Shown piece by piece: positions 5,396-49,922 of a stretch of DNA of 64,000 nt (its first letter is position 1; each line of letters starts with the position of its first letter). Both the position numbers and the translations under genes were made by a program. Under the pieces are notes generated by a model that saw only the letters and a program-made list of their open reading frames with translations, was not told the DNA's origin and made no database searches. Location: the NCBI GenBank assembly GCA_025611195.1, contig GCA_025611195.1_4718.2. One strand, written 5' to 3'. The DNA comes from a phage.

Positions 5396-5433
5396 CGTTA
5401 TCTCCATAGCAGGTACCGGTAACGCGGCATAAA

Positions 5434-7207: not shown

Positions 7208-7260
7208 CGCACGTACCTCTTTGAATCGGTAGATAGATTAATAGATATTGATTACTCACG

Positions 7261-7280
7261 TAAGTAATATAGCCGTGAAA
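7261..7280 (-). promoter_or_regulatory. promoter-like motif, minus-strand TTTCACGGCTATATTACTTA
   Basis: 20-mer identical to 30572-30591; TATATTAC core 57 nt upstream of the HD-domain operon start; hairpin immediately downstream. Confidence 0.5.
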
Positions 7281-9511: not shown

Positions 9512-9538
9512 AGCTCTGCCTGATGTCAGGCAGAGCTT
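9512..9538 (+). terminator. intrinsic terminator after helicase gene
   Basis: AGCTCTGCC-TGATGTC-AGGCAGAGCT followed by TTTAT. Confidence 0.55.
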
Positions 9539-22026: not shown

Positions 22027-23613
22027 TTAGAAGTTGCCTTTGGTAGTTACCGCATCCACCAGGTTAAACAAATCAACACTCAGCTTGTAAACCTCCTGCT
22101 GGCTACGGTTGAGCAGTGGGCTGTACGCGGACGGGTTGATGTTCGGCATGGTGTACGGAATCGGTGAAGAGCCGTCAACGCTGATCTTGAACTGGCTGTC
22201 CAGGAACAGGTTGATTGCGCCACTCACCATAACCGCGTTCGGGTTGTTACCCAACATGGAGGGCAGGATATTGGTAATCATGTCAGAGCGCATCTGTTCA
22301 GCAGCGCGGTTACAATCATACCCTTTAATGAACGGTACAGCGTCAGTAACCGCAACCGCCCATTGCCCAGGCATGATACCTAGTTCTGGATGGCCGTGGT
22401 TATCAGCAATGAAACGGAACGATTCCAACATGCGATACGTCATCGCAGCAGGCATCATCGCAGCAAGCGACGAACAGTACAATGTTGGGTAATCGATAAC
22501 GTCCCAGCTCTGGCTATCGGTCGGCATCCAGCCAAACTCAGTGGTTGCTGATGTACCGCGACGAGCTTCCACATACGGGAATAACGTTAATACGTCACGG
22601 ATATGTTCGCCGAACATCCGTTTCATGTCTACCCAACTCATGCTACCGCTGAAGGCGAATCCCTCATCACGCATGATCGCACCGAATACCGGATGTGCAA
22701 CCAACGGTTCTTCACGAACAGCTTGAGCTGCTTCTACGTAAATATCCTCATTCTCTGCGCTACCTGGATGAGACCCGCTTTCGTACGTCTGACGAATAGC
22801 CCCGACGTTATCGAAGGCTTTTCTTAGATAGATGGTTGGGATGTTCGTATCAGCACTCGCTGGTTTGATTTTCTCCGTTGCGAAACACATTGCTGCTTCC
22901 ACACCACGAAAAACCGGTTCCGGTTGCGATTGATAGGAAGAGCGATGGACCACATCAGCGTAGGCTGGATCGAACTGCTGCATCACGTTCTGCATGGCTG
23001 GGTCCATGAACTGGTTATCAAAACCACCATTGCCTACCCAACGTGCTGTCGACGCATAAGTCAGCGTATCCTGAACACGAGTACTGAACTGAACATCACG
23101 ATTAACAGGGTCGTATGCGCCAGTCAAAAGGTTCGTTGCGTCCATCGGGGTCGCGCGAACGATTTGCTTACCGAACATATCCGTTGTGGTTGTTTCGGTT
23201 ACCTGGATTACATTCGTGAAGAAGAACACCAGTTCGTTCGGTAGATCGATAGAACGCGTTGTAAACGCATCGAGGCTTACCGAATGGTCGGTGTATCCAG
23301 AAATGTAATGGACGCGCTTGGTTCCTGGTGCAAGGGCCAAGGATTCTTCCACAGCCATCATGAAATGGAAACGACGTGTGCCCCAACCATTCGCAATCTC
23401 CGAAACCCCCTCAGGTTCTGCAGACTGCTGTAACAAACCGGTTGCAAGCTTATTGATTGCTGATGGGGTTGTTGCCGTACCGAACTTCGTCGTGTTAATA
23501 AAGTCTTCGATGCTACGCATGCTATCTGCATGGAATCGTAGTGGACGACGTTGTACGTTGTTGTACGGTGCGGTTTCAACCATCAGTATTTCACGAACAT
23601 TCATCGGGATCAT
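22027..23613 (-). CDS. hypothetical protein (528 aa)
   Basis: Long ORF, 2-nt gap to upstream gene. Confidence 0.6.
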   Translation of the reverse strand: MIPMNVREILMVETAPYNNVQRRPLRFHADSMRSIEDFINTTKFGTATTPSAINKLATGLLQQSAEPEGVSEIANGWGTRRFHFMMAVEESLALAPGTKRVHYISGYTDHSVSLDAFTTRSIDLPNELVFFFTNVIQVTETTTTDMFGKQIVRATPMDATNLLTGAYDPVNRDVQFSTRVQDTLTYASTARWVGNGGFDNQFMDPAMQNVMQQFDPAYADVVHRSSYQSQPEPVFRGVEAAMCFATEKIKPASADTNIPTIYLRKAFDNVGAIRQTYESGSHPGSAENEDIYVEAAQAVREEPLVAHPVFGAIMRDEGFAFSGSMSWVDMKRMFGEHIRDVLTLFPYVEARRGTSATTEFGWMPTDSQSWDVIDYPTLYCSSLAAMMPAAMTYRMLESFRFIADNHGHPELGIMPGQWAVAVTDAVPFIKGYDCNRAAEQMRSDMITNILPSMLGNNPNAVMVSGAINLFLDSQFKISVDGSSPIPYTMPNINPSAYSPLLNRSQQEVYKLSVDLFNLVDAVTTKGNF

Positions 23614-23614
23614 T

Positions 23615-25201
23615 TTATTTTTTTCCTCTTAAATTTACTACATGTTCATTTAATCGAACAACTAATTGCACAAGCTGCTGACGGATATCTGCTGGACAAA
23701 GCATCAATCCTTTACGATCAGCTGGGACTTTCTCAAGGATTTCCGGACCTGCTGCGGAAACATCCCAATCCCATTCACAAAACGCATCAGCCACCATGTT
23801 AATACCGACAACCGGTAAAGTTGTACGTTCATCTTCATACATGGCATGCGGATACAATTTATTGACGGTAATGACCTCCTGTGGTTTTAACTGATGGATA
23901 ATCTGGTAAACGTCGTCGCGTTTAACCTGGATACCTACGGTCAGCGCAGCCAGTTGAGGAAAACCCCAATGGTCTAATAAACACGCTGCGATCGCTAACG
24001 CTTTTGCCTGATGTACGGCTTCAATCGGTGATAGACTTCTCGCTGGAAGATGGCTATCAAGCAACCATTGTGCCAATGCTCGGCATCCACGGTTGATTGG
24101 TTTTAACTCAACGCTGTCATCATGTTTAGCGTAGGTGTATCCGTCGTAACGTTTTGCGATACGCGCATACATGTCTTCAACTTTACCGTAAGGTGCCGTT
24201 TCATCGATGTCGTGCAGCACCCGTTCCATCTGGGTAAGATACGCGATGTCGAGAATGAGTACGCGCGGTGAACGTTTATCTTTCACCATCAACGCATCGA
24301 TCACGCCTTGGCTATCTTCGTCTTGCGCGTTCCCTCGCGGGGTTTTCTCGCGAATCGGTCCGCTGAAACGTCGTTCCGTACAAAGGTTATTCACATAGCT
24401 AAAGATCAACGTTACCAGGTGCGTACAACTTACCAACACCCCATCTTTAACGACAGGCTGTACGGCTTGGTCCAAATCGCGTACTGCGAGACGGCGAACG
24501 ATGGCTTGTGAACGCAACCAACCGGGTACTTTCTCCGTCGACATGTAATCCACTGTCATCGACAGCGTGATCTTTTTATCACCTGTCTGCGCACGGATAT
24601 AATCTTCCAGTCGGTCGTAAGCAGCGATATCATGAATGCGTGTTTTATACATTAACGACATAGCTACTTCTTCTTTACGTACCGTCCCGTACGTTTTCCC
24701 TGCGTCAATCAGAAACTCCGCCCAAATCGGCACCATCAGACGGACGTAGATCGCTAACGCCGTTAACTCAACGTAATCATTTCGTAAATAGGTTTTCTCG
24801 GGTATATCATCCTCACCTAATGTTGTTTTCATGTCCGGCGGTAATTTTACCCAACCTGGGGTATTACACAACGCCAGAATCTCTTCATACACAACCGGTT
24901 TGTAAATTTCACCAACAGCGCGGCTCAACTCCTCCATTTGTTGTTGTGGAGCAATGTAGTTATCCATCGCTTCACGTGCTTTAACGAACCCTTCGAAGAT
25001 GTCGTCGATTCGACGTGGGTTCTTTTGTTCTATCCAGGCGAGATACTTGTTAATCTCCCGCATCTGATTGCTAGCCATATCCCCATCAATCTTGATGTAA
25101 CCCTGGCCTGAAAATTCCACGGTACGTCCGTCACGATGTTTGATGAGATAGTGATCCAGCTTTTCTTTGCCTTGCGTCGTAATGACGGGCACTATGTGCA
25201 T
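23615..25201 (-). CDS. hypothetical protein (528 aa)
   Basis: Long ORF preceded by promoter-like motif at 25294-25313. Confidence 0.6.
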   Translation of the reverse strand: MHIVPVITTQGKEKLDHYLIKHRDGRTVEFSGQGYIKIDGDMASNQMREINKYLAWIEQKNPRRIDDIFEGFVKAREAMDNYIAPQQQMEELSRAVGEIYKPVVYEEILALCNTPGWVKLPPDMKTTLGEDDIPEKTYLRNDYVELTALAIYVRLMVPIWAEFLIDAGKTYGTVRKEEVAMSLMYKTRIHDIAAYDRLEDYIRAQTGDKKITLSMTVDYMSTEKVPGWLRSQAIVRRLAVRDLDQAVQPVVKDGVLVSCTHLVTLIFSYVNNLCTERRFSGPIREKTPRGNAQDEDSQGVIDALMVKDKRSPRVLILDIAYLTQMERVLHDIDETAPYGKVEDMYARIAKRYDGYTYAKHDDSVELKPINRGCRALAQWLLDSHLPARSLSPIEAVHQAKALAIAACLLDHWGFPQLAALTVGIQVKRDDVYQIIHQLKPQEVITVNKLYPHAMYEDERTTLPVVGINMVADAFCEWDWDVSAAGPEILEKVPADRKGLMLCPADIRQQLVQLVVRLNEHVVNLRGKK

Positions 25202-25293
25202 AACAACCTCTTTTCGCGGTTCCCTGTTAAAACGTCTTCGGCGACGTCTACCACAAAGGTAACATTTATGTCGCCTCTATGACTTTGTTCATA

Positions 25294-25313
25294 GAGGTAA
25301 TATAAGCGTGAAT
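25294..25313 (-). promoter_or_regulatory. promoter-like motif, minus-strand ATTCACGCTTATATTACCTC
   Basis: Same consensus; about 95 nt upstream of gene start 25201; abuts hairpin 25274-25297. Confidence 0.45.
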
Positions 25314-25443
25314 AATTTTGGATTCCGGCTGAGTTATCGCTCAGCATGCAAGGCATCCCGCCGAAGCGAGACACCTTGCACTAACGGAAGATATTCGCGT
25401 TACCTTCTGAGTCTTCGATTCAGAATGCGAAGCTGAAGCATTA

Positions 25444-26232
25444 TTAGAACGCTAAGCCATCAAAGGCTACCGACGGATCATCGTCGTCATTTGCGCTTGG
25501 TGCATCCCAACGGGTATCTGGGGCTGCTGGAGCCGAACGCGATGCGTTAGAGTTACCGTTGTACTGGCCGTTACCAGCATTACGGTTACCGCCGCCGTTA
25601 TTGTTGTTACGATTATAGCTATTATTGCCATTGCTTACGCTACGGCTTTCACCATCGAAATTGGTCGCGAGGATGCTTGGCAACACCGCACGATGAATAC
25701 GTACGAATTCCAGCGCGCAAAGCGGTGAAACAACCCCGATCTGTAAAGGTTGTCCAGACTCATCAACCAAAGAGTGGAAACGTGGCGGCTTGAATACGAA
25801 CTGGATGTTCGGTTTTTGGTACGCAGTTACGGCGATATATACCGAACCATCATCATTCTTACCAACCCATGTTGTACTTTCGGTAATCTGTTTCTTCTTA
25901 CCTGGGTTATTGCGATCATCAATAACCTTTTCGTTCTTCATCGCAAAGCGTTGACCTGGTTTACCCTTAGCAACCTGCTCGAGGATCGCAAGCAGGTTAT
26001 AGAACGCATATGAACTCATGCGTGCCCAAATGCTTTCAGCGCGACCCTGCTGGTCCTTACGACCTGTATAAACCGTGATACGCGGTTGATTCTTAGCAAC
26101 GCTAATTTTCAATGAGGGGACTGAATTGCCGCCCTCAACTTTTTCGTCCGCCCACAGTTTCCAGTTGTTGTCGTCGTAAGCCGTAGGAATAATGTTTCCT
26201 TGTGGTTTACTGCCCGAATTCCAATTGCTCAT
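25444..26232 (-). CDS. SSB-like protein candidate
   Basis: C-terminal N/G-rich low-complexity linker followed by acidic tip DDDDPSVAFDGLAF, the architecture of SSB tails. Confidence 0.3.
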   Translation of the reverse strand: MSNWNSGSKPQGNIIPTAYDDNNWKLWADEKVEGGNSVPSLKISVAKNQPRITVYTGRKDQQGRAESIWARMSSYAFYNLLAILEQVAKGKPGQRFAMKNEKVIDDRNNPGKKKQITESTTWVGKNDDGSVYIAVTAYQKPNIQFVFKPPRFHSLVDESGQPLQIGVVSPLCALEFVRIHRAVLPSILATNFDGESRSVSNGNNSYNRNNNNGGGNRNAGNGQYNGNSNASRSAPAAPDTRWDAPSANDDDDPSVAFDGLAF

Positions 26233-26305: not shown

Positions 26306-27103
26306 TCAGCGGAACATGTCCAACAGAAAACGTTTTGCGAAGGGGTCGCGTAACTGGTTGACGCCAAAGCGTGTACGGTCTTCCGTTGTTAACGGATTCC
26401 ACTGACTCTGTTTCGCAAGATCTAACAGCATCCTTTTTATTTTCACCGGCCCGCTGTTAAACTGTACGGCTTGGTCGCCGAACGTTCCCAATGTCATCTT
26501 TGTAAATGGGAGGTTCGCAACCTCTGGACGATCTCCACCAGTAAGTTTGGTCGACCACTGATGTTTTCGTTTCAAAGTTCCGGTATGACTCTCTACCAAA
26601 ATAAGTTCACCAAAACCGGTTCTTGCCAACAAGTCAGAAACATAGTGCGTAGTGATATACGACGTTTTGGTTATCGTGGGTAATTTACAATCCATCGATT
26701 CGATATTGGGGAGTCGATCTACAGACGCCATCAACCCACGATAAAGTGTGGCGAGTCCTTTTTGTTTTTCGGTGTGTGGCTCCTTGTGTATAGCGTGCGG
26801 ATAAACACGCTTTATTGACGCATAGGTTGGCGCATATATCCGCAAACGAATATGGGGAACGAGTTCATTCACCAACTGCCTTAGCTGCAGCAACTCGTTT
26901 TGAAAATCCCCCGTTATCATCGATAATGGTAATTTATGCTGTTCGACGTCTTCAAAGCTTTCAACAAAATTGCGCGCTAAAGTACGCAGGTTGAACAACC
27001 AATCCATCGGCGTTTCTGGCTGTTGCTGCACGGCTGATAATGTTGCTGACGTCCCCACCGATAAAGGATAATCACCTAACGTGCGGGCGTACATATCGCT
27101 CAT
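26306..27103 (-). CDS. hypothetical protein (265 aa)
   Basis: ATG at 27103 with AAGGAG RBS; track start 27139 would overlap the upstream gene. Confidence 0.55.
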   Translation of the reverse strand: MSDMYARTLGDYPLSVGTSATLSAVQQQPETPMDWLFNLRTLARNFVESFEDVEQHKLPLSMITGDFQNELLQLRQLVNELVPHIRLRIYAPTYASIKRVYPHAIHKEPHTEKQKGLATLYRGLMASVDRLPNIESMDCKLPTITKTSYITTHYVSDLLARTGFGELILVESHTGTLKRKHQWSTKLTGGDRPEVANLPFTKMTLGTFGDQAVQFNSGPVKIKRMLLDLAKQSQWNPLTTEDRTRFGVNQLRDPFAKRFLLDMFR

Positions 27104-30571: not shown

Positions 30572-30591
30572 TAAGTAATATAGCCGTGAAA
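30572..30591 (-). promoter_or_regulatory. promoter-like motif, minus-strand TTTCACGGCTATATTACTTA
   Basis: Identical 20-mer; 92 nt upstream of membrane-protein gene start 30480. Confidence 0.5.
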
Positions 30592-32133: not shown

Positions 32134-34723
32134 TTAGCAATGGTTGTTAGTTGCTTCTATTTCATCAAGATACGGTTCTACGTCATCGCCCTCCACGAAT
32201 TCGTTGAACCAACAGTCAATGGTAGAAATAACCGGTGACTGGTGTTCACATTTCTTAGATACCTTAAAAGGTACGTTATTATCCATCATACCGAGTTCGG
32301 GTCGAAAACGCCCGAAATGTTTCGCAGTCCAAATGTCTGGGACGATATGGTTGTTCATCGTGGTGTTCAGCATGAGTCGCTACCTCATACCCGCAGCTTT
32401 ACCTGCAGCTTCCGGTGTTACCGGAATGTCCAGAATACATCTTATCCATATTCCAAATGGAACGTAGGACTTCCGCGCTGGATCTCGCTTGAGACCACGT
32501 ATTCGTTGAACGTTCTCCTGAACGGAGCTTCGCTGCTGATCGAACATTGTCGTGTACGGTAGGCATCCCCGAAGGGATTGTCATTGAAGCCGCGTACATC
32601 CGCTACCTTGTTTCTACCTTATCGGTTCCTCTTACGAGGCGTAGCGGCCTTAGCCCTTCCCAGCAATTCACGGAATCCAAGCTCTTCCTTTCGGAAGGCA
32701 GGGCCTATGATTAAGCATCCCCGTCGCTGTTATCGACTATATCTTCATCCTCGTTGCGAGGAGTCTCCCGTTTGGGTCTGTGTTTAACAGAGCCTACTCT
32801 ACTCAACATCGCGTCTTTCGATAGTCTGTGAGCACACATCTTAACGAACATTCGTGGATTCCTAAACAGGTGAACGTTCTTGTTGAGATGCTTCGCTGCG
32901 GATTATTCCCGTCCTACCTCTTTTACCGTACCCAGTTCATTACGCTGGCCCTCATCTATGTCACCATGATGAGTTGGTGTGTAGTCCGATTACAGAAACT
33001 TCCCGTCAATTAGAGAGTTTTAACTACGTTCCTGTTACCAGAAACCAGATCCCGACGGTATCAATAAATCAACGTAAGTTATTGATTTAATTGAAAAACT
33101 GAAATCTGCATTATCTAAATCTTCAGTATGGTTCGCTACTCCATACCCGTACCTCATGTACTGCTTACGTCTTTCACGTAAGGATAGACTATATCTTTCA
33201 CCCTCAGCATTATCTGGTCGGGGCTCCCATTTCGGCGGTCAGATGACCGGTGGTTTCCCACGCCGCTTGGCCCTAACGCCCGTAAGCGATAGTCGTTGAG
33301 CACATCTCCGTTCTGGAGACTTCGCTGCGGATTCCCCAATCCTTGCCGCTTTTACCGTACCTGAATGATTAGTTCAGCCCCACGCTCTGTTCCCAGGCAT
33401 GGTTGGTGGACGAGGCTCTAAGTAGGTTCCCGCATTAGAGAGTTCCTCGTAACAACATTTCTGCGTTACTGGGCCTAACGACCCTTTCAAGATCATCACG
33501 CTTAACCCGATGGTGTTATCCTGCGGATCGCGTTTAACCTTGGTGATTTCAAGACATTGGTTACTGCTTCGGTCAAGTGATGGGTTTCGAACAAAGCCGC
33601 ACACAATCCCATCGAACGGTGTATCAGCAATAAGCTCATCATGCAGCTCGCTCATCATCGGATGATAATTACGGACATGTTCCGCAACGAACGCACGTGC
33701 TGCTCTCGGTGAATAACCGCGATGGAATAACTTGGATTGGATATGTTCTTTATTGGTTAAAGTAAATGGTGCGTATGGGAAATGCAGATGATAATAACGA
33801 TGGTTCGCTGTTATCGAACTGATTACGGTACGCGTGGTGAATGGATGTAATGTACCTAATATGTTTTTACGCGTGATACCTTTCTTCTTACCGATGAACT
33901 CATCGAAAATCGCCGCGTGGTATTGCAGCAGCTTCAATTGCACTTTCGCCATCCAGTTTTCTTTCTTTCTGGCGCTCAAAGGTGTTGTTGGATGATAGAT
34001 ACTATTCAGTGTACCAATAGCATCGATCGCACCTTCCATTTTGCTATCTGCATAACGGCCGGTCGGTGTATTTTCGATAACGAACATCATGGCCGCAGGA
34101 AAGCTGATATACTGACTGAAGAACTTATCACGATGGATACGGATGAATTCTCGTAGCGTGTCAACTTTCTCTGTGTTCTTCGGTCCACGTAATGTGGGTC
34201 CTTTATACAAGATCTCCATGATGCGATCGAAGTTCTGTATAAAGCTATTTACACCACGCCGTATCCCGAATACATCAAATTGCTGCTCCAGATAGTTCTT
34301 GAGTTCAATGGGTCGTTTTACATTTGGACGGTAACTGGCATCAATGAGCCACGTCATCGTTTCGAAGCTTTTGATATTCAACTCGCTTGCCAGCACGAGA
34401 TGGACCAACGGGTTAATGAACGCATCGATTCCTTCAGGGACACGCGCCCAGACCGTCGAACGAATCTCCTGTTCTGCTGGGTAGGTTACAACCGTTTTAC
34501 AGTTTGGACACACCGTGCCGAGCAACTCACCGCGATTGTAGAAACCACAACCACATTGTGGCGTGATATCCAACGTATCGCTGGAGTAAACACGGGTGAT
34601 AAAACTGTTTAATTTCTTCTTCTCTTCGACGACTTTTGTATCGTAATCGTTCAACAAAATCGGCGTAAAGGGAAGTTCTGCGAGCTGTCTATCGAAACTC
34701 ACGATATCGAGCATGATGGCCAT
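32134..34723 (-). CDS. multisubunit RNA polymerase beta-prime, N-terminal subunit; proposed 4 exons (34723-33490, 33120-33102, 32726-32714, 32367-32134) split by three group I introns
   Basis: Exon 1 has the Zn-finger (CGCG..CPNC) and RNPSLDRSSNQCLEI (cf NRAPTLHRLGIQAFEP); micro-exons encode LDNADF and DGDA; last exon NTTMNNHIVP (cf QMAVHVP); exon lengths 1234+19+13+234 = 1500 nt keep frame; unspliced ORF ends in intron read-through. Confidence 0.5.
32368..32713 (-). other. group I intron C (ORF-less, about 346 nt)
   Basis: P AATTGCTGGGAAGGG with Q ATCAGCAGCGAAG (compensatory GCTG/CAGC), R CAACGAATACG with S AAGATGTATTC (compensatory P7 change); 3' tail homologous to intron A. Confidence 0.45.
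32727..33101 (-). other. group I intron B (ORF-less, about 375 nt; 3' domain unusually short)
   Basis: P AATTGACGGGAAG, Q AATCCGCAGCGAAG, R GTGCTCACAGACTATCG, S GAAGATATAGTCGATAAC; only about 8 nt between S and the proposed 3' splice G. Confidence 0.4.
33121..33489 (-). other. group I intron A (ORF-less, about 369 nt)
   Basis: Minus-strand elements P AATGCGGGAACC, Q GAATCCGCAGCGAAGTC, R GTGCTCAACGACTATCGC, S AAAGATATAGTCTATCC in correct order; possible P1 pairing exon GAUCU with GGGUC; boundaries approximate. Confidence 0.5.
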
Positions 34724-34815: not shown

Positions 34816-36711
34816 TTAGAACAGGTTGAATGCTCCACCCATGTTGTTACCACCAACATTCGGACGATCGCTACGTGCATAGATGTTGCCGGAGATGTTA
34901 CCCAGACCACGAGCACGTGCTGCTGTGTTACCACGAACGGCGGTACCTGCCAGATGCTGGATGTTCTCAGGACGGATGGTGAAGCCAGCTTCGGCAGCCG
35001 CTTCAATCAATGCCGCAAGCGCATTCGGTTCGAAATCGTAACGCATTGCCCAACCGGTTTGTTCCCAGCTACCAGACAGAACGCGATCGATGATTTCGTG
35101 ACGAGCAACAACACGCTGAGACATCGACATATCGGTACGGTCGAAGCTGTCTTCCCAAGCTTCTACGGTATCCGGGTTAGTGATGTTCATCATGTACAGA
35201 TCGTCCATATCACGAATATCGTGACGGTTACCGTCCTGGTGGTTGTAGTGACCCAGCGGGATACGGTTACCAGTAGCGTAGACTAACGGTTGGCCGTATT
35301 GATATTTCTTGCTGAAGCAACCCAGGGTGGTATCATCGAATGCACGATAGAGTGCTTTATAGCCTTCGGAGATTTCTTGAACTTTACCGTCAACGTTGCC
35401 CGTAAAGATCTTCTCAGCTGCAGGGATCATACGCAGCAACCAGCTATATTCGCCTTCTTCCGGTACGTCGATAGAAATCAGCAGAGACGGATACAGTACC
35501 TGTTGCAGGAACTTGTAAATCTGCTCGTTGGTTTGAGTAGACAGATCCAGCGGTGCAGTAACTTCCGGATCCAGTACCATCGCCAGAGCACCCGGGTTAT
35601 GCGGACCAATACCACGAGCAGCGTTGCTGATTAAAGACTGCGCCCACGCCATACCGCTGTTCAGCGTAGCGATGGTACCAATCAGACCCAGCACAAACGT
35701 GTTCGGAGTGAACGCATCCAGCTCCAGCGGGTAGGCGCTGGTCATCACGTAACGCGGTTGGTACTGTACAGTCGGCGGTACCGGATAACCGTTAACCAGA
35801 ACAGGACCTTGGTTGAAGGTCGGGTTCTGCGGGCTGTAGGTCAGGTCAATGTAACCAGTGGTTGCGACCAGGCGCTGTTGACTATCGTAATCGCTCATCG
35901 CTTGACGGATACGGTTAGAGATAGTTACAGTGATGTCAGAACGCACTGGGTTACCGACGATATCGCTGTCCTGCATACCGCTGGTGTTGTACTGAACGCT
36001 GCTGATCGGCTGATCGCTTGCCATCATGCCCAGGTTGAACTGCGGCAGACCCAGTTTATCGCCGAGACGGATTTCGATCGCGGTTTGGATTGCGTTATCT
36101 GCAGCAGACAGCAGGGTGGTTGCCAGATGCGCAGATTCAGCAGTGATTTCATTGGTCACCACAGCCAGACCGGCGATACGAACAGTACCGTTAGCCTTAC
36201 CGCCAATAGCCGCATACATTGCCGCCATGACTTCGTTGATGAACGTGCCGTTCAGGTTATCAACCCAGGTACGCGGTACCAGAATGTTACCATGCGGACC
36301 TTGTTCTTCACGACGCGGCAGCGGAGCCAAACCGGCAACCAGCGGAAGCACATAACCGAAGAAGTGGTTATGGTCACCAACTTTTGCACCGCTCATAACA
36401 ACCAGGGTCGGATACGGTACACTGTACTGGTTAGGATCGACGGTCACCATGATGAAGTCGTCTTTGAACCCTTTATCTTCCAGTTCTTTCTCCATCAGAC
36501 GACGGAGATTCAGTACCTGCTCGGAGCCAGTATTACGGCTAATACGACGGCTCAGTGTACGGTTGATCGTACGCATCGTATGAGTTACTTTAGGCTGGCC
36601 AGCAAAATCTGCAGCGGTTTCCAGCGCCTCATCAGCACGTTGTGCGGTGCGGGTTTCAGCTGCACGAATTTCTACATTATCGTTACCGTTATTACGTACG
36701 TCTAAGCCCAT
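34816..36711 (-). CDS. chimallin (phage nucleus shell protein) candidate
   Basis: 631 aa, the size recalled for known chimallins; directly upstream of the beta-prime N gene as recalled for phiKZ gp54-gp55; strong preferred-codon bias; first gene after promoter motif 36781-36800; no sequence comparison possible. Confidence 0.4.
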   Translation of the reverse strand: MGLDVRNNGNDNVEIRAAETRTAQRADEALETAADFAGQPKVTHTMRTINRTLSRRISRNTGSEQVLNLRRLMEKELEDKGFKDDFIMVTVDPNQYSVPYPTLVVMSGAKVGDHNHFFGYVLPLVAGLAPLPRREEQGPHGNILVPRTWVDNLNGTFINEVMAAMYAAIGGKANGTVRIAGLAVVTNEITAESAHLATTLLSAADNAIQTAIEIRLGDKLGLPQFNLGMMASDQPISSVQYNTSGMQDSDIVGNPVRSDITVTISNRIRQAMSDYDSQQRLVATTGYIDLTYSPQNPTFNQGPVLVNGYPVPPTVQYQPRYVMTSAYPLELDAFTPNTFVLGLIGTIATLNSGMAWAQSLISNAARGIGPHNPGALAMVLDPEVTAPLDLSTQTNEQIYKFLQQVLYPSLLISIDVPEEGEYSWLLRMIPAAEKIFTGNVDGKVQEISEGYKALYRAFDDTTLGCFSKKYQYGQPLVYATGNRIPLGHYNHQDGNRHDIRDMDDLYMMNITNPDTVEAWEDSFDRTDMSMSQRVVARHEIIDRVLSGSWEQTGWAMRYDFEPNALAALIEAAAEAGFTIRPENIQHLAGTAVRGNTAARARGLGNISGNIYARSDRPNVGGNNMGGAFNLF

Positions 36712-40280: not shown

Positions 40281-40347
40281 AAATCCTCCAAAAGTTATTT
40301 AGTCTGTCTACATCATCTCGTATATCTGTTAAAAAAGAAGGACGGCA

Positions 40348-40371
40348 TAAAAAGAACCGATCCAGCCGAAG
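40348..40371 (-). terminator. intrinsic terminator-like hairpin with minus-strand U-tract
   Basis: Minus strand CCGATCTGGCTTCGGCTGGATCGG followed by TTCTTTTTAT, downstream of 40577-40990. Confidence 0.5.
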
Positions 40372-40576
40372 CCAGATCGGTTTAAAGGATAATAACTGAC
40401 AGAAAGATATCGATGATGTTCGTGAAACAAGATCTTCTCTCGTGTACAATGATGCCAGATCAGAGGGAGGTTGTAACACGAGAGGTGGTTCGCCAAAGAA
40501 GGAATAAAAACACGAACCTATCTTATTTCACTGATGGCACTAACCACTCAAAATATATAGTACTGTATGTAAAAGT

Positions 40577-49617: not shown

Positions 49618-49872
49618 GATAGAAATCCTTAGTATGTTTGATATGTTGTTTAATTGACATATTAAGTTTAAAAGAGGTTATGTTTTACGTATTGTTAATA
49701 ACGTATTCTTATCTCTATTAAGCTATGTTCTATCTAAAGATAGTAAACAGATATAATGCTCCCCACCTCCCCATTCTCCCAAGTAATACTGGCCTACCGG
49801 CCCTCTCCTTTTTAAGGGAGAGAGTAAGCATTCAGTATTGCTCAAATGAATAAGCAAAACAGTATAAACTTA

Positions 49873-49896
49873 CCGTCTCGAGACAACTCGAGACGG
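49873..49896 (-). terminator. intrinsic terminator-like hairpin CCGTCTCGAG/CTCGAGACGG
   Basis: 10-bp perfect inverted repeat; minus strand followed by TAAGTTTATACTGTTTTG. Confidence 0.5.
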
Positions 49897-49922
49897 CGTA
49901 GTGTCTGTTTATCTCTTTTATG

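Follow-up and report, generated by a model that had tools for sequence, protein, structure and literature searches.

The intergenic region at 25202-25443 of a 64,000-nucleotide stretch of phage DNA (contig GCA_025611195.1_4718.2 of assembly GCA_025611195.1; the whole stretch is referred to as the window) is probably a composite control region, in which terminator-type hairpins are followed by an early promoter of the virion RNA polymerase (RNAP) and a short 5' untranslated region (UTR), with a small cassette in addition. Apart from the cassette, this is an ordinary intergenic control region for the phage family concerned. What is not ordinary at this locus, and modestly novel, is the cassette itself: a polymorphic, structurally conserved element of 38 or 39 bp, which, at a best guess, acts at the RNA level to modulate or insulate early expression.

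The window is collinear with 135.5-199.5 kb of Escherichia phage vB_EcoM_Goslar (Goslar), a nucleus-forming jumbo phage of E. coli (Chimalliviridae, 237 kb), and is ~95% identical to it, a 1.1-kb query over the region giving 95.5% nucleotide identity. The region forms the 242-bp gap between two genes on the minus strand, i.e. chmC (25444-26232) upstream and a homologue of phiKZ gp68 (23615-25201), the fifth subunit of the non-virion RNAP, downstream. Nineteen Goslar-like sequences (isolate assemblies and metagenomes, ~95-99% identical) were compared, as were the more distant L007 and L008, which share 51% and 53% identity with the window in the gp68-homologue protein, and the phiKZ-type phage KTN4. 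Goslar-like genomes are common in public data (loci L019-L032, contigs of 235-248 kb, protein cluster P0001/P0007), and one variant of the gp68 homologue is found on 361 contigs, from gut metagenomes and from NCBI assemblies labelled E. coli, Salmonella enterica and Shigella. P0007, the most frequent variant of this protein, by itself accounts for 618 indexed blocks of the collection.

The region is highly structured, as the preliminary description of this DNA had proposed: it folds at -90.5 kcal/mol, compared with -64.9 +/- 4.4 in dinucleotide shuffles (z = -5.76), and because of its inverted repeats the opposite strand folds equally well (z = -5.90). It is, however, not the single 240-nt leader that was described, since with the promoter core at 25297-25304 some ~140 bp (25305-25443) lie upstream of the promoter, nor is it AT-rich (45.5% GC versus 46.3% in the window). 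The minus-strand hairpins GCTGAG-CGATAA-CTCAGC (25328-25345) and CCTCTATGA-ACAAAG-TCATAGAGG (25274-25297, sharing the last C of the TATATTAC core) are present as reported, while two others had been overlooked, namely H2 (25347-25380), which is the strongest, and the imperfect 9-bp H1 (25405-25425). That no credible ORF is encoded also holds, the 60-aa GTG-initiated open reading frame (ORF) at 25192-25374 being frameshifted by the 38-bp indel in relatives. The leaders at 40281-40576 and 49618-49922, which had been called similar, are likewise highly structured (z = -4.0 and -5.8) but of another kind: they have 38% and 35% GC, neither scores as an early promoter, and 40281-40576 holds a canonical hairpin followed by a TTTTTATGCCGT motif of the terminator/late-promoter type. 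Rfam covariance models gave no hits at gathering thresholds in the whole window, the only match within the region being a sub-threshold one to istR (19.6 bits versus a cut-off of 45, E = 0.086), and a search for tRNA and tmRNA found none.

The promoter was recognised from its consensus and by position weight matrix. It occupies 25285-25334 on the minus strand, in the form (A/T-rich)-TTCACGCT-TATATTAC-CTCTATGA, with the exact core TATATTAC at 25297-25304 and an extended form ATTATTCACGCT-TATATTAC-CTCTATGA. The exact TATATTAC is found at four sites in the window, all of which are intergenic, on the sense strand, upstream of a gene and embedded in a common ~40-nt consensus. The window has five early promoters and Goslar 13, every one of them on the minus (sense) strand; the Goslar sites are mostly intergenic, a few lying just inside the upstream ORF by crude ORF calls. 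The matrix that these 13 sites fit reads AAT..AA.A..TTTCACG.C TATATTAC CTA..TGA. When it was trained on the 12 other Goslar promoters, with this locus left out, the window promoter scored 30.9 bits and that of Goslar 36.0 bits, against 30.7-55 bits in the training set, and both the TTTCA/T-rich element ~10 nt upstream of the core and the TG 6-7 nt downstream are present in the window promoter. No host sigma-70-like site was found on the minus strand of the region. One of the window promoters lies upstream of a 631-aa ORF (34816-36711), the homologue of Goslar_00189, which we take to be the major nuclear-shell protein.

The Goslar-type consensus belongs to the same family as the published jumbo-phage early promoters, which are TATATTAC in phiKZ, TTTRARRBTATATTACDWHDGTG in 201phi2-1, and variants in OBP and N1M2 (PMC7058600). 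Shared with the phiKZ-like promoters are the TATATTAC core, the T-rich/TTTCA element ~10 nt upstream, the (G)TG 5-7 nt downstream and the position on the sense strand ahead of early genes, with the same place before the gp68 orthologue in KTN4 and 201phi2-1. In fact, the layout in KTN4 is the same (chmC homologue, one strong hairpin, TATATTAC, 33 nt, gp68 start codon), and upstream of the orthologous gp124 of 201phi2-1 an early promoter has been mapped experimentally (PMC11512511). In contrast, the Goslar type has CACGGC before the core and TGA after it, the 38-bp cassette here parts the core from the ancestral start region, and the start sites here are predicted ones. The consensus also has an inverted repeat of its own, TT(T)CAC ... 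GTGA(A), around the TATATTAC core (~-20 versus +1), which is found at the window promoters at 7264, 25297, 30575 and 36784 and at the Goslar promoters, and likewise in the published N1M2 consensus (TTTCARR..GTGWA). At the first of these (core 7264-7271), the window differs from Goslar by an 8-bp indel in the 5' UTR, ~28 nt downstream of the core (7229-7236; CTATCTAC, minus strand, in the window).

A TG at nt 6-7 past the core (TATATTAC or TACATTAC) is present at 13/13 Goslar early promoters and at seven early-promoter-like TATATTAC sites of KTN4, as well as at the KTN4 gp68 promoter. Considering this invariant downstream TG, together with an early-promoter motif that is centred near -10 (PMC7598289; PMC8244752), the start in cassette carriers is therefore predicted at G25290 (minus strand), the G of the conserved TGA, 7 nt past TTAC. 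The ancestral, Goslar-type start would be the G of TTAC-CTTTGTGG, at 25252 on the same strand. This gives a predicted 5' UTR of about 51 nt in Goslar and about 89 nt in the window, ahead of a Shine-Dalgarno sequence GAGG (25207-25210) and an ATG start codon (25199-25201), both read from the minus strand; this stretch is the same in all Goslar-like relatives but one, L024, which has a 1-nt deletion just upstream. The second TTAC copy was considered as a further early promoter and rejected, as it scores -15.9 bits on the position weight matrix. It resembles a putative phiKZ middle-promoter consensus (AAanntTAC), to which no weight was given. In the outgroup L008, the sequence is TACATTAC-CTATGTGTTAGAC, a homologue of the second copy in the window, CTTTGTGGTAGAC.

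The cassette (TTACCTCTATGAACAAAGTCATAGAGGCGACATAAATG, 38 bp, placed at 25263-25300 on the minus strand by indel alignment) is absent from Goslar, which is without exactly these 38 bp and thereby without the whole hairpin that abuts the promoter motif. It is flanked by a direct repeat TTACCT (25295-25300 and 25257-25262), because of which its placement is ambiguous over 25257-25300, and it is the sole indel of more than 13 bp between the window and Goslar outside the intron region described below. Seven of the 19 Goslar-like sequences have the cassette and 12, Goslar included, do not, and its presence is independent of the flanking single-nucleotide polymorphism (SNP) haplotype, both haplotypes occurring with and without it. 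Three alleles exist (38 and 39 bp), and a paralogue, again flanked by TTACCT, is found at the corresponding place in another early promoter, the one upstream of Goslar_00236. This paralogue is kept in every genome examined, and its right half is identical to that of the 39-bp alleles. Only the cassette is gained or lost between relatives; no gene has moved.

Base pairing within the cassette is conserved throughout. Its largest hairpin, S1 (CCUCUAUGA-ACAAAG-UCAUAGAGG; 25274-25297, minus strand), has a 9-bp stem and folds at -12.8 kcal/mol (z = -5.9, none of 200 shuffles being as good; the z-scores of individual hairpins were obtained from shuffles throughout, S1 and the UTR hairpin Hc each being tested against 200). 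In an alignment of 12 distinct cassette sequences, all nine S1 pairs are kept in 100% of cells while the loop is variable, two pairs having undergone compensatory double changes between the paralogues and two sequences having a U.G wobble. A mini-hairpin adjoins it at 25261-25272 (minus strand; GACA-UAAA-UGUU, or GACGU-AAA-ACGUU in the 39-bp alleles and the paralogue), of which four pairs are kept in 12/12 sequences and one has changed from G-C to A-U on both sides. Taken together, S1 and the mini-hairpin are 100% paired with three double-changed pairs, compared with 22-58% pairing in slid controls.

As S1 covers the predicted start (~-7 to +17), its formation is limited to DNA and to RNA read through from upstream. 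An alternative structure, S2 (25251-25282, minus strand), is available to transcripts from G25290: here the 3' arm UCAUAGAGG (25274-25282) pairs with a second copy, CCUUUGUGG (25251-25259), enclosing the mini-hairpin. The predicted 89-nt UTR adopts S2 as its minimum-free-energy fold (-25.1 kcal/mol, z = -2.6), and the gp236 paralogue folds into the same shape. All nine common pairs of S2 are kept, two of them with double changes, whereas slid controls over S1 and S2 are 22-67% paired. With a start at G25290, S2 and not S1 would be the only form possible in the promoter's own RNA.

Where the cassette came from was sought in several collections. No other copy with up to 3 mismatches exists in the window, no cassette-like sequence beyond chance was found in 50,697 phage records, and no copies outside Goslar-like phages were found in viral, metagenome and genome collections. 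A loose pattern scan of IMG/VR gave 92 hits, mostly chance, which filtering reduced to one family (L072/L100). In these unrelated large viral contigs (153 kb and 202 kb, respectively), a bidirectional terminator, ATTACCTCTATGA-CCGAAG-TCATAGAGGTAAT, is repeated (L100 724-751 and 1847-1874; L072 511-538), with a UUCG-type loop on the other strand and then T runs; its stem consists of the same 9 nt as the cassette stem and its loop is similar, which is probably a coincidence (rough P about 0.1 after multiple testing). An origin as a tandem duplication of the following 38 bp finds no support here, where identity is near-random past the first 12 nt, and is suggestive only at the gp236 locus. A miniature inverted-repeat transposable element was also considered: a 6-bp direct repeat flanks the cassette at both loci and a 9-bp inverted repeat lies inside it, but there are just two loci per genome, and the same promoter position of both copies could equally reflect recombination between promoters.

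Upstream of the promoter, three minus-strand hairpins can be read as the 3' boundary of the operon ending with chmC. H1 (UUCUGA-A-UC-GAA-GA-C-UCAGAA; 25405-25425, inverted repeat I3) is an imperfect 9-bp hairpin just past the chmC stop codon, which at -5.3 kcal/mol is not significant on its own (z = -0.9) and occurs as two haplotypes in the relatives, the loop (GAA/UUC) differing and the A.C mismatch becoming a G.U pair. H2 (TGCAAGGTGTCTCGC-TTCG-GCGGGATGCCTTGCA; 25347-25380), with a 15-bp stem and a UUCG tetraloop, is the strongest structure of the region (-25.1 kcal/mol, z = -6.3). Its three G.U pairs on the sense strand turn into internal loops on the antisense, i.e. the sense strand forms the better helix, and its SNPs all leave the pairing intact (U.G to C-G and G.U to G-C in L032, A-U to G.U in L024). 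The promoter core begins 33 nt past the end of H2. At the other three Goslar early promoters where a co-directional gene lies upstream across a sizeable gap, hairpins of -26 to -31 kcal/mol precede the core by 35-45 nt, and these are the standard CCTCCC..GGGAGG + TTATGC(C/T)G terminators of the phage; L007, L008 and KTN4 also have one strong hairpin at the place equivalent to H2. H2 is thus a probable terminator or 3'-end hairpin of the chmC operon. Directly 3' of it lies the 6-bp hairpin H3 (GCUGAG-CGAUAA-CUCAGC; 25328-25345, inverted repeat I7), which is present in the minimum-free-energy fold, although a 6-bp arm at such a distance is within chance expectation. H3 is invariant across all Goslar-like sequences and, for that reason, provides no covariation evidence. 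Most likely, H2, aided by H1 and H3, would end and/or stabilise the chmC-operon transcript.

In comparison with the terminator of phiKZ and 201phi2-1 (a CCYCCCC..GGGRRGG hairpin followed by TTATKYYGT), H2 lies at the place equivalent to such terminators in Goslar, canonical copies exist elsewhere in the window, and KTN4 has a hairpin and TATGCC after its chmC homologue. The stem sequence of H2 is nevertheless a different one, with a UUCG tetraloop, and it is followed by GCATGCTG instead of TTATGC(C/T)G and then by the small hairpin H3, without a U-rich tail. The intergenic combination of a GC-rich hairpin and TTATGC(C/T)G recurs in the window at 5425, 17595, 40343 and 44389 (minus strand) and at 9538 and 20663 (plus strand), one copy lying within 40281-40576; it fits the phiKZ terminator (..GGGRRGG..TTATKYYGT) and includes the TATG late-promoter core. 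Two more plus-strand matches to TTATGCTG, at 26934 and 30839, are intragenic and have no such hairpin ahead of them.

Hairpins near the start may be common to the Goslar early promoters. When the 13 promoters were held fixed and the 40 nt downstream of each were shuffled, the best hairpins with 5' arms starting upstream of the start averaged -8.03 kcal/mol versus -4.13 +/- 0.65 (P < 5e-5), and those starting at +1 to +5 averaged -4.55 versus -2.29 +/- 0.58 kcal/mol (P = 4.5e-4). At 7/13 promoters, a hairpin with an energy of -6 kcal/mol or lower begins 1 nt past TTAC, compared with 15% of random positions (binomial P = 0.0014), and eight of the 13 promoters are individually extreme for start-proximal hairpins. 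That such hairpins are a feature of the Goslar group is moderately supported by these comparisons.

The proposed course of events is as follows. Downstream of H2, the early promoter would start transcription anew into the gp68-homologue gene, whose product, as fifth subunit of the non-virion RNAP, is probably sigma-like. The RNAP in question must be made early, as it would switch the phage to middle and late transcription. In carriers, the cassette sits between the promoter core and the ancestral start region, with TTACCT duplicated; the upstream half of the promoter being intact and the cassette bringing its own TGA, the start would shift to ~25290 and the UTR would become 89 nt long, in which the right arm of the cassette would pair with the duplicated CCUUUGUGG. 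In RNA read through from chmC, S1 would act like the stem-loop of the PeSLs of T4-type phages, insulating the promoter from upstream transcription. The cassette may be easily gained and lost, for which slippage or recombination at TTACCT, or gene conversion with the Goslar_00236 paralogue, could serve.

PeSLs are cassettes of an early promoter and a stem-loop (Arbiol et al. 2010, PMC2839356; Comeau et al. 2014, PMC4122927), in which the stem-loop was proposed to block incoming upstream transcription while the promoter restarts it, and which drive indels between close relatives (PMC2839356). The element described here is likewise a composite of early promoter and stem-loop, the stem-loop may overlap the stretch just before the start, and it is tied to insertion/deletion differences between close phages. 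However, PeSLs use host sigma-70 promoters, are numerous, and flank whole shuffled ORFs, whereas here the promoter is of the virion-polymerase type, a homologous cassette is found at two promoters only, the gain or loss concerns 38 bp and no gene, and the terminator role is putative. It is even conceivable, but improbable, that the cassette is a regulatory element specific to virion-RNAP early promoters, spreading by itself or by recombination and inserting at, or converting, TTACCT after the core; start-spanning hairpins would then be a general Goslar-type code (for insulation or mRNA fate), and presence or absence of the cassette would mean variation in the speed of the switch from early to middle/late transcription.

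A number of observations weigh against the region being organised in this way. A literature search found no transcriptome of a Goslar-like phage, and start sites, termination and timing are all predicted. H2 is without a U tract, did not register as terminator-like in the consensus scan, and is not followed by the TTATGC(C/T)G that ends the standard terminators of the phage. Regarding the start-proximal hairpins, the enrichment with the start fixed at G7 is not significant against random genomic TGA positions (P = 0.37), the hairpin offsets were picked after seeing the data, and the result depends on the control; moreover, no obvious equivalent hairpins were seen at the KTN4 early promoters in the first 50 kb, where the start regions are AT-rich and unstructured. 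Regarding the cassette, S1 and S2 are indistinguishable with these data, the covariation amounts to about three independent events among close relatives, and intrastrand gene conversion can make the two arms of a DNA palindrome evolve together with no selection involved. Finally, the cassette is dispensable, because most Goslar-like genomes lack it at this locus.

The main rival explanation for the cassette is that it is a neutral, slightly unstable palindromic indel, subject to drift and recombination among co-circulating Goslar-like phages, with its arms kept by intrastrand gene conversion. Such neutrality is possible: only 7/19 near-identical sequences have the cassette, uncoupled from their flanking haplotypes, short direct repeats around a palindrome are well established as a classic substrate for precise deletion, the promoter scores somewhat lower with the cassette (30.9 versus 36.0 bits), and no source sequence was found elsewhere. 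Less easily accommodated is the Goslar_00236 paralogue, which is kept in all genomes examined and whose changes fall in the loop or result in wobble. The G-C to A-U change in the mini-hairpin is also harder to explain by arm conversion, as it lies outside the large palindrome, and three alleles at the locus indicate long persistence. A role of the cassette in modulating or insulating early expression at the RNA level is preferred as the best guess.

Within the 5' UTR, the preliminary description had likened a further hairpin, followed by a T run, to an attenuator. This hairpin, Hc (AGACGUC-GCCGAA-GACGUUU, core ACGUC/GACGU; 25230-25249 on the minus strand, with a fourth U at 25229), is indeed located in the 5' UTR, with a loop of 6 nt (ACGTC-GCCGAA-GACGT) instead of the GCCGAAG originally given. 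It lies between the predicted starts (25290 / 25252) and the ATG at 25201, beginning 4 nt after the ancestral one, and folds at -8.0 kcal/mol (z = -3.7, 0/200 shuffles as good). Among the Goslar-like sequences examined, only L029 has a broken stem, a G-to-A change having produced an A.C mismatch; the loop varies at two of six positions, and UViG_3300011560 has TTTC where the others have TTTT after the hairpin. No significant counterpart was found in L007, L008 or KTN4, whose UTRs have z-scores of -0.1, +0.3 and +0.1.

For the Goslar-type UTR, a resemblance to another class of structure is apparent. A stem-loop ~4 nt from the 5' end protects E. coli mRNAs from 5'-end-dependent decay, and 5'-terminal stem-loops of the ompA type reportedly stabilise both E. 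coli and phage mRNAs. The ancestral UTR would consist of three free nucleotides followed by the Hc stem-loop, i.e. Hc would begin ~4 nt from the predicted 5' end, whereas in the cassette carriers it is 41 nt from the predicted 5' end, with 8-9 free nucleotides before the first stem. Our inference is that Hc, lying close to the 5' end, serves to protect or tune the mRNA; as a signal for pausing or termination it would be weak at best, and we do not regard it as a dedicated attenuator.

If Hc were an attenuator, transcripts from the early promoter would stop at Hc and the U run, limiting how much of the polymerase subunit is made until read-through is enabled by some factor, and a short leader RNA would be implied, of about 25 nt in the Goslar type and about 62 nt in the cassette carriers. 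Hc does surpass its shuffles (z = -3.7), UUUU follows it directly, and its stem is kept in all Goslar-like sequences but one while the loop varies. Furthermore, premature 5'-UTR termination with abundant short RNAs is documented in phiKZ and 201phi2-1: 42 such termination sites were reported across the phages studied, with more than 90% of PHIKZ221 transcripts aborted in phiKZ (PMC10914365), as well as eight small RNAs from 5' UTRs in 201phi2-1 (PMC11512511). In these cases, too, a hairpin and U run lie between an early start and the ribosome-binding site (PMC10914365, PMC11512511), but the stem and U tract of Hc are much weaker and far closer to the start (~+4 to +23), and Hc is not conserved beyond the Goslar group. 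The mapped 5'-UTR terminators of phiKZ mostly carry CCYCCCC..GGGRRGG+TTAT (PMC10914365), which is absent at Hc. With a core stem of just 5 bp (3 G-C) and a tail TTTAACAG of 3-4 U, Hc falls short of a stable GC-rich stem directly followed by at least five U in 8 nt, and it was not reported by the terminator consensus scan; extending the stem uses up part of the U run. The mismatch in L029 breaks the stem, UViG_3300011560 has an interrupted T run (TTTC), L007, L008 and KTN4 have no significant hairpin at the same locus, and a stop ~25 nt past the ancestral start would be unusually early. Moreover, there is no conserved anti-terminator pairing in the Goslar-type 51-nt UTR; in the carriers, GGCGAC (25270-25275) could pair with GUCGCC of Hc (I4), a 6-nt match which at this distance is within chance. 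Taken together, an attenuator at this position is unlikely, and a protecting or tuning 5'-proximal structure is preferred for Hc.

It is also rather unlikely that the region is one long processed leader, with the gene at 23615-25201 expressed mainly from the chmC-operon transcript and H1-H3 and S1 serving as processing or stabilising sites for RNase III/E. Read-through is plausible, as none of the hairpins has a canonical U tract, the full S1 is possible only in read-through RNA, and H2 is long (15 bp). Yet the spacer contains a high-scoring early promoter, whose position is conserved in phiKZ-type phages and was experimentally mapped in 201phi2-1, and H2 is, as far as is generally known, below the typical length of an RNase III substrate and stands at the terminator position of other early promoters.

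Least of all does the 24-bp palindrome seem to act as a DNA-level element present at only two promoters, either as an operator for a dimeric phage repressor or as a cruciform/hairpin signal for the virion polymerase, which we consider very unlikely: its location at ~-7 to +17 around the predicted start is typical of an operator, hairpins whose stem begins ahead of the start show the strongest enrichment of any class at Goslar early promoters, and the virion polymerase of phage N4 is generally known to use DNA hairpin promoters, but the half-sites differ between the paralogues while their complementarity is kept, which points to base pairing instead of protein read-out, two sequences have a G.T/U.G wobble, the 15-bp centre-to-centre spacing of the half-sites is atypical of helix-turn-helix dimers, no such palindrome is needed at the remaining 11 Goslar early promoters, and the virion polymerase of jumbo phages is a multisubunit enzyme unrelated to that of N4.

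The identities of the two flanking genes were obtained by PDB sequence search and from the literature, a Pfam search with both proteins giving no match. The upstream gene (25444-26232, minus strand; PHROG 3284) is identified as chmC, the homologue of Goslar gp176 (Goslar_00176), by its identity to the Goslar_00176/00175 stretch, and its product carries an acidic C-terminal tail. Goslar gp176 was named ChmC and is an abundant, early, nucleus-associated RNA-binding protein (bioRxiv 10.1101/2023.09.22.559000). Going upstream in the window, the next early promoter is met only at 30575-30582, and chmC would accordingly be the last gene of the upstream early operon. The downstream product (23615-25201, minus strand; PHROG 3209) matches PHIKZ068 (PDB 7ogp_B / 9rjs_B; phmmer, E = 2e-28, residues 23-518 versus 20-517), and its KTN4 counterpart, KTN4_090, carries an annotation as non-virion RNAP subunit. 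In phiKZ, PHIKZ068 makes up the fifth subunit of the non-virion enzyme, and its AR9 homologue, gp226, functions in initiation as a sigma-like factor (PMC7598289). The next gene (22027-23613, PHROG 3141) is 1 nt away and, like 23615-25201, has exactly 528 codons; PHIKZ068 is matched by 23615-25201 only, and the equal length is apparently coincidental.

Elsewhere in the window, the intron region of the RNA polymerase beta'-like gene (32730-33482, Goslar 168217-169670) differs from that of Goslar. About 1,065 bp with the NUMOD1/HNH endonuclease ORF Goslar_00186 are missing from it, 368 bp (33115-33482) cannot be aligned to Goslar, and the adjacent ORF has 449 aa versus 423 aa. The Goslar annotation has a group I intron in the homologous 385 bp, yet none was reported for the window by Rfam at gathering thresholds.

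Should the cassette be without effect, the finding as a whole would be an ordinary one. The annotation suggested for the region is that of terminator-type hairpins, an early promoter and a short 5' UTR, which places such a promoter, in an E. coli jumbo phage, immediately ahead of the gene for a probably sigma-like protein, the fifth non-virion RNAP subunit. The Goslar-type early-promoter consensus can be used to annotate such genomes, which are found in hundreds of public enterobacterial assemblies. The cassette itself is a natural, clean with/without variant at the 5' region of a gene involved in the early-to-late switch and, as such, provides a ready-made experiment on 5'-proximal structure and early expression in nucleus-forming phages.

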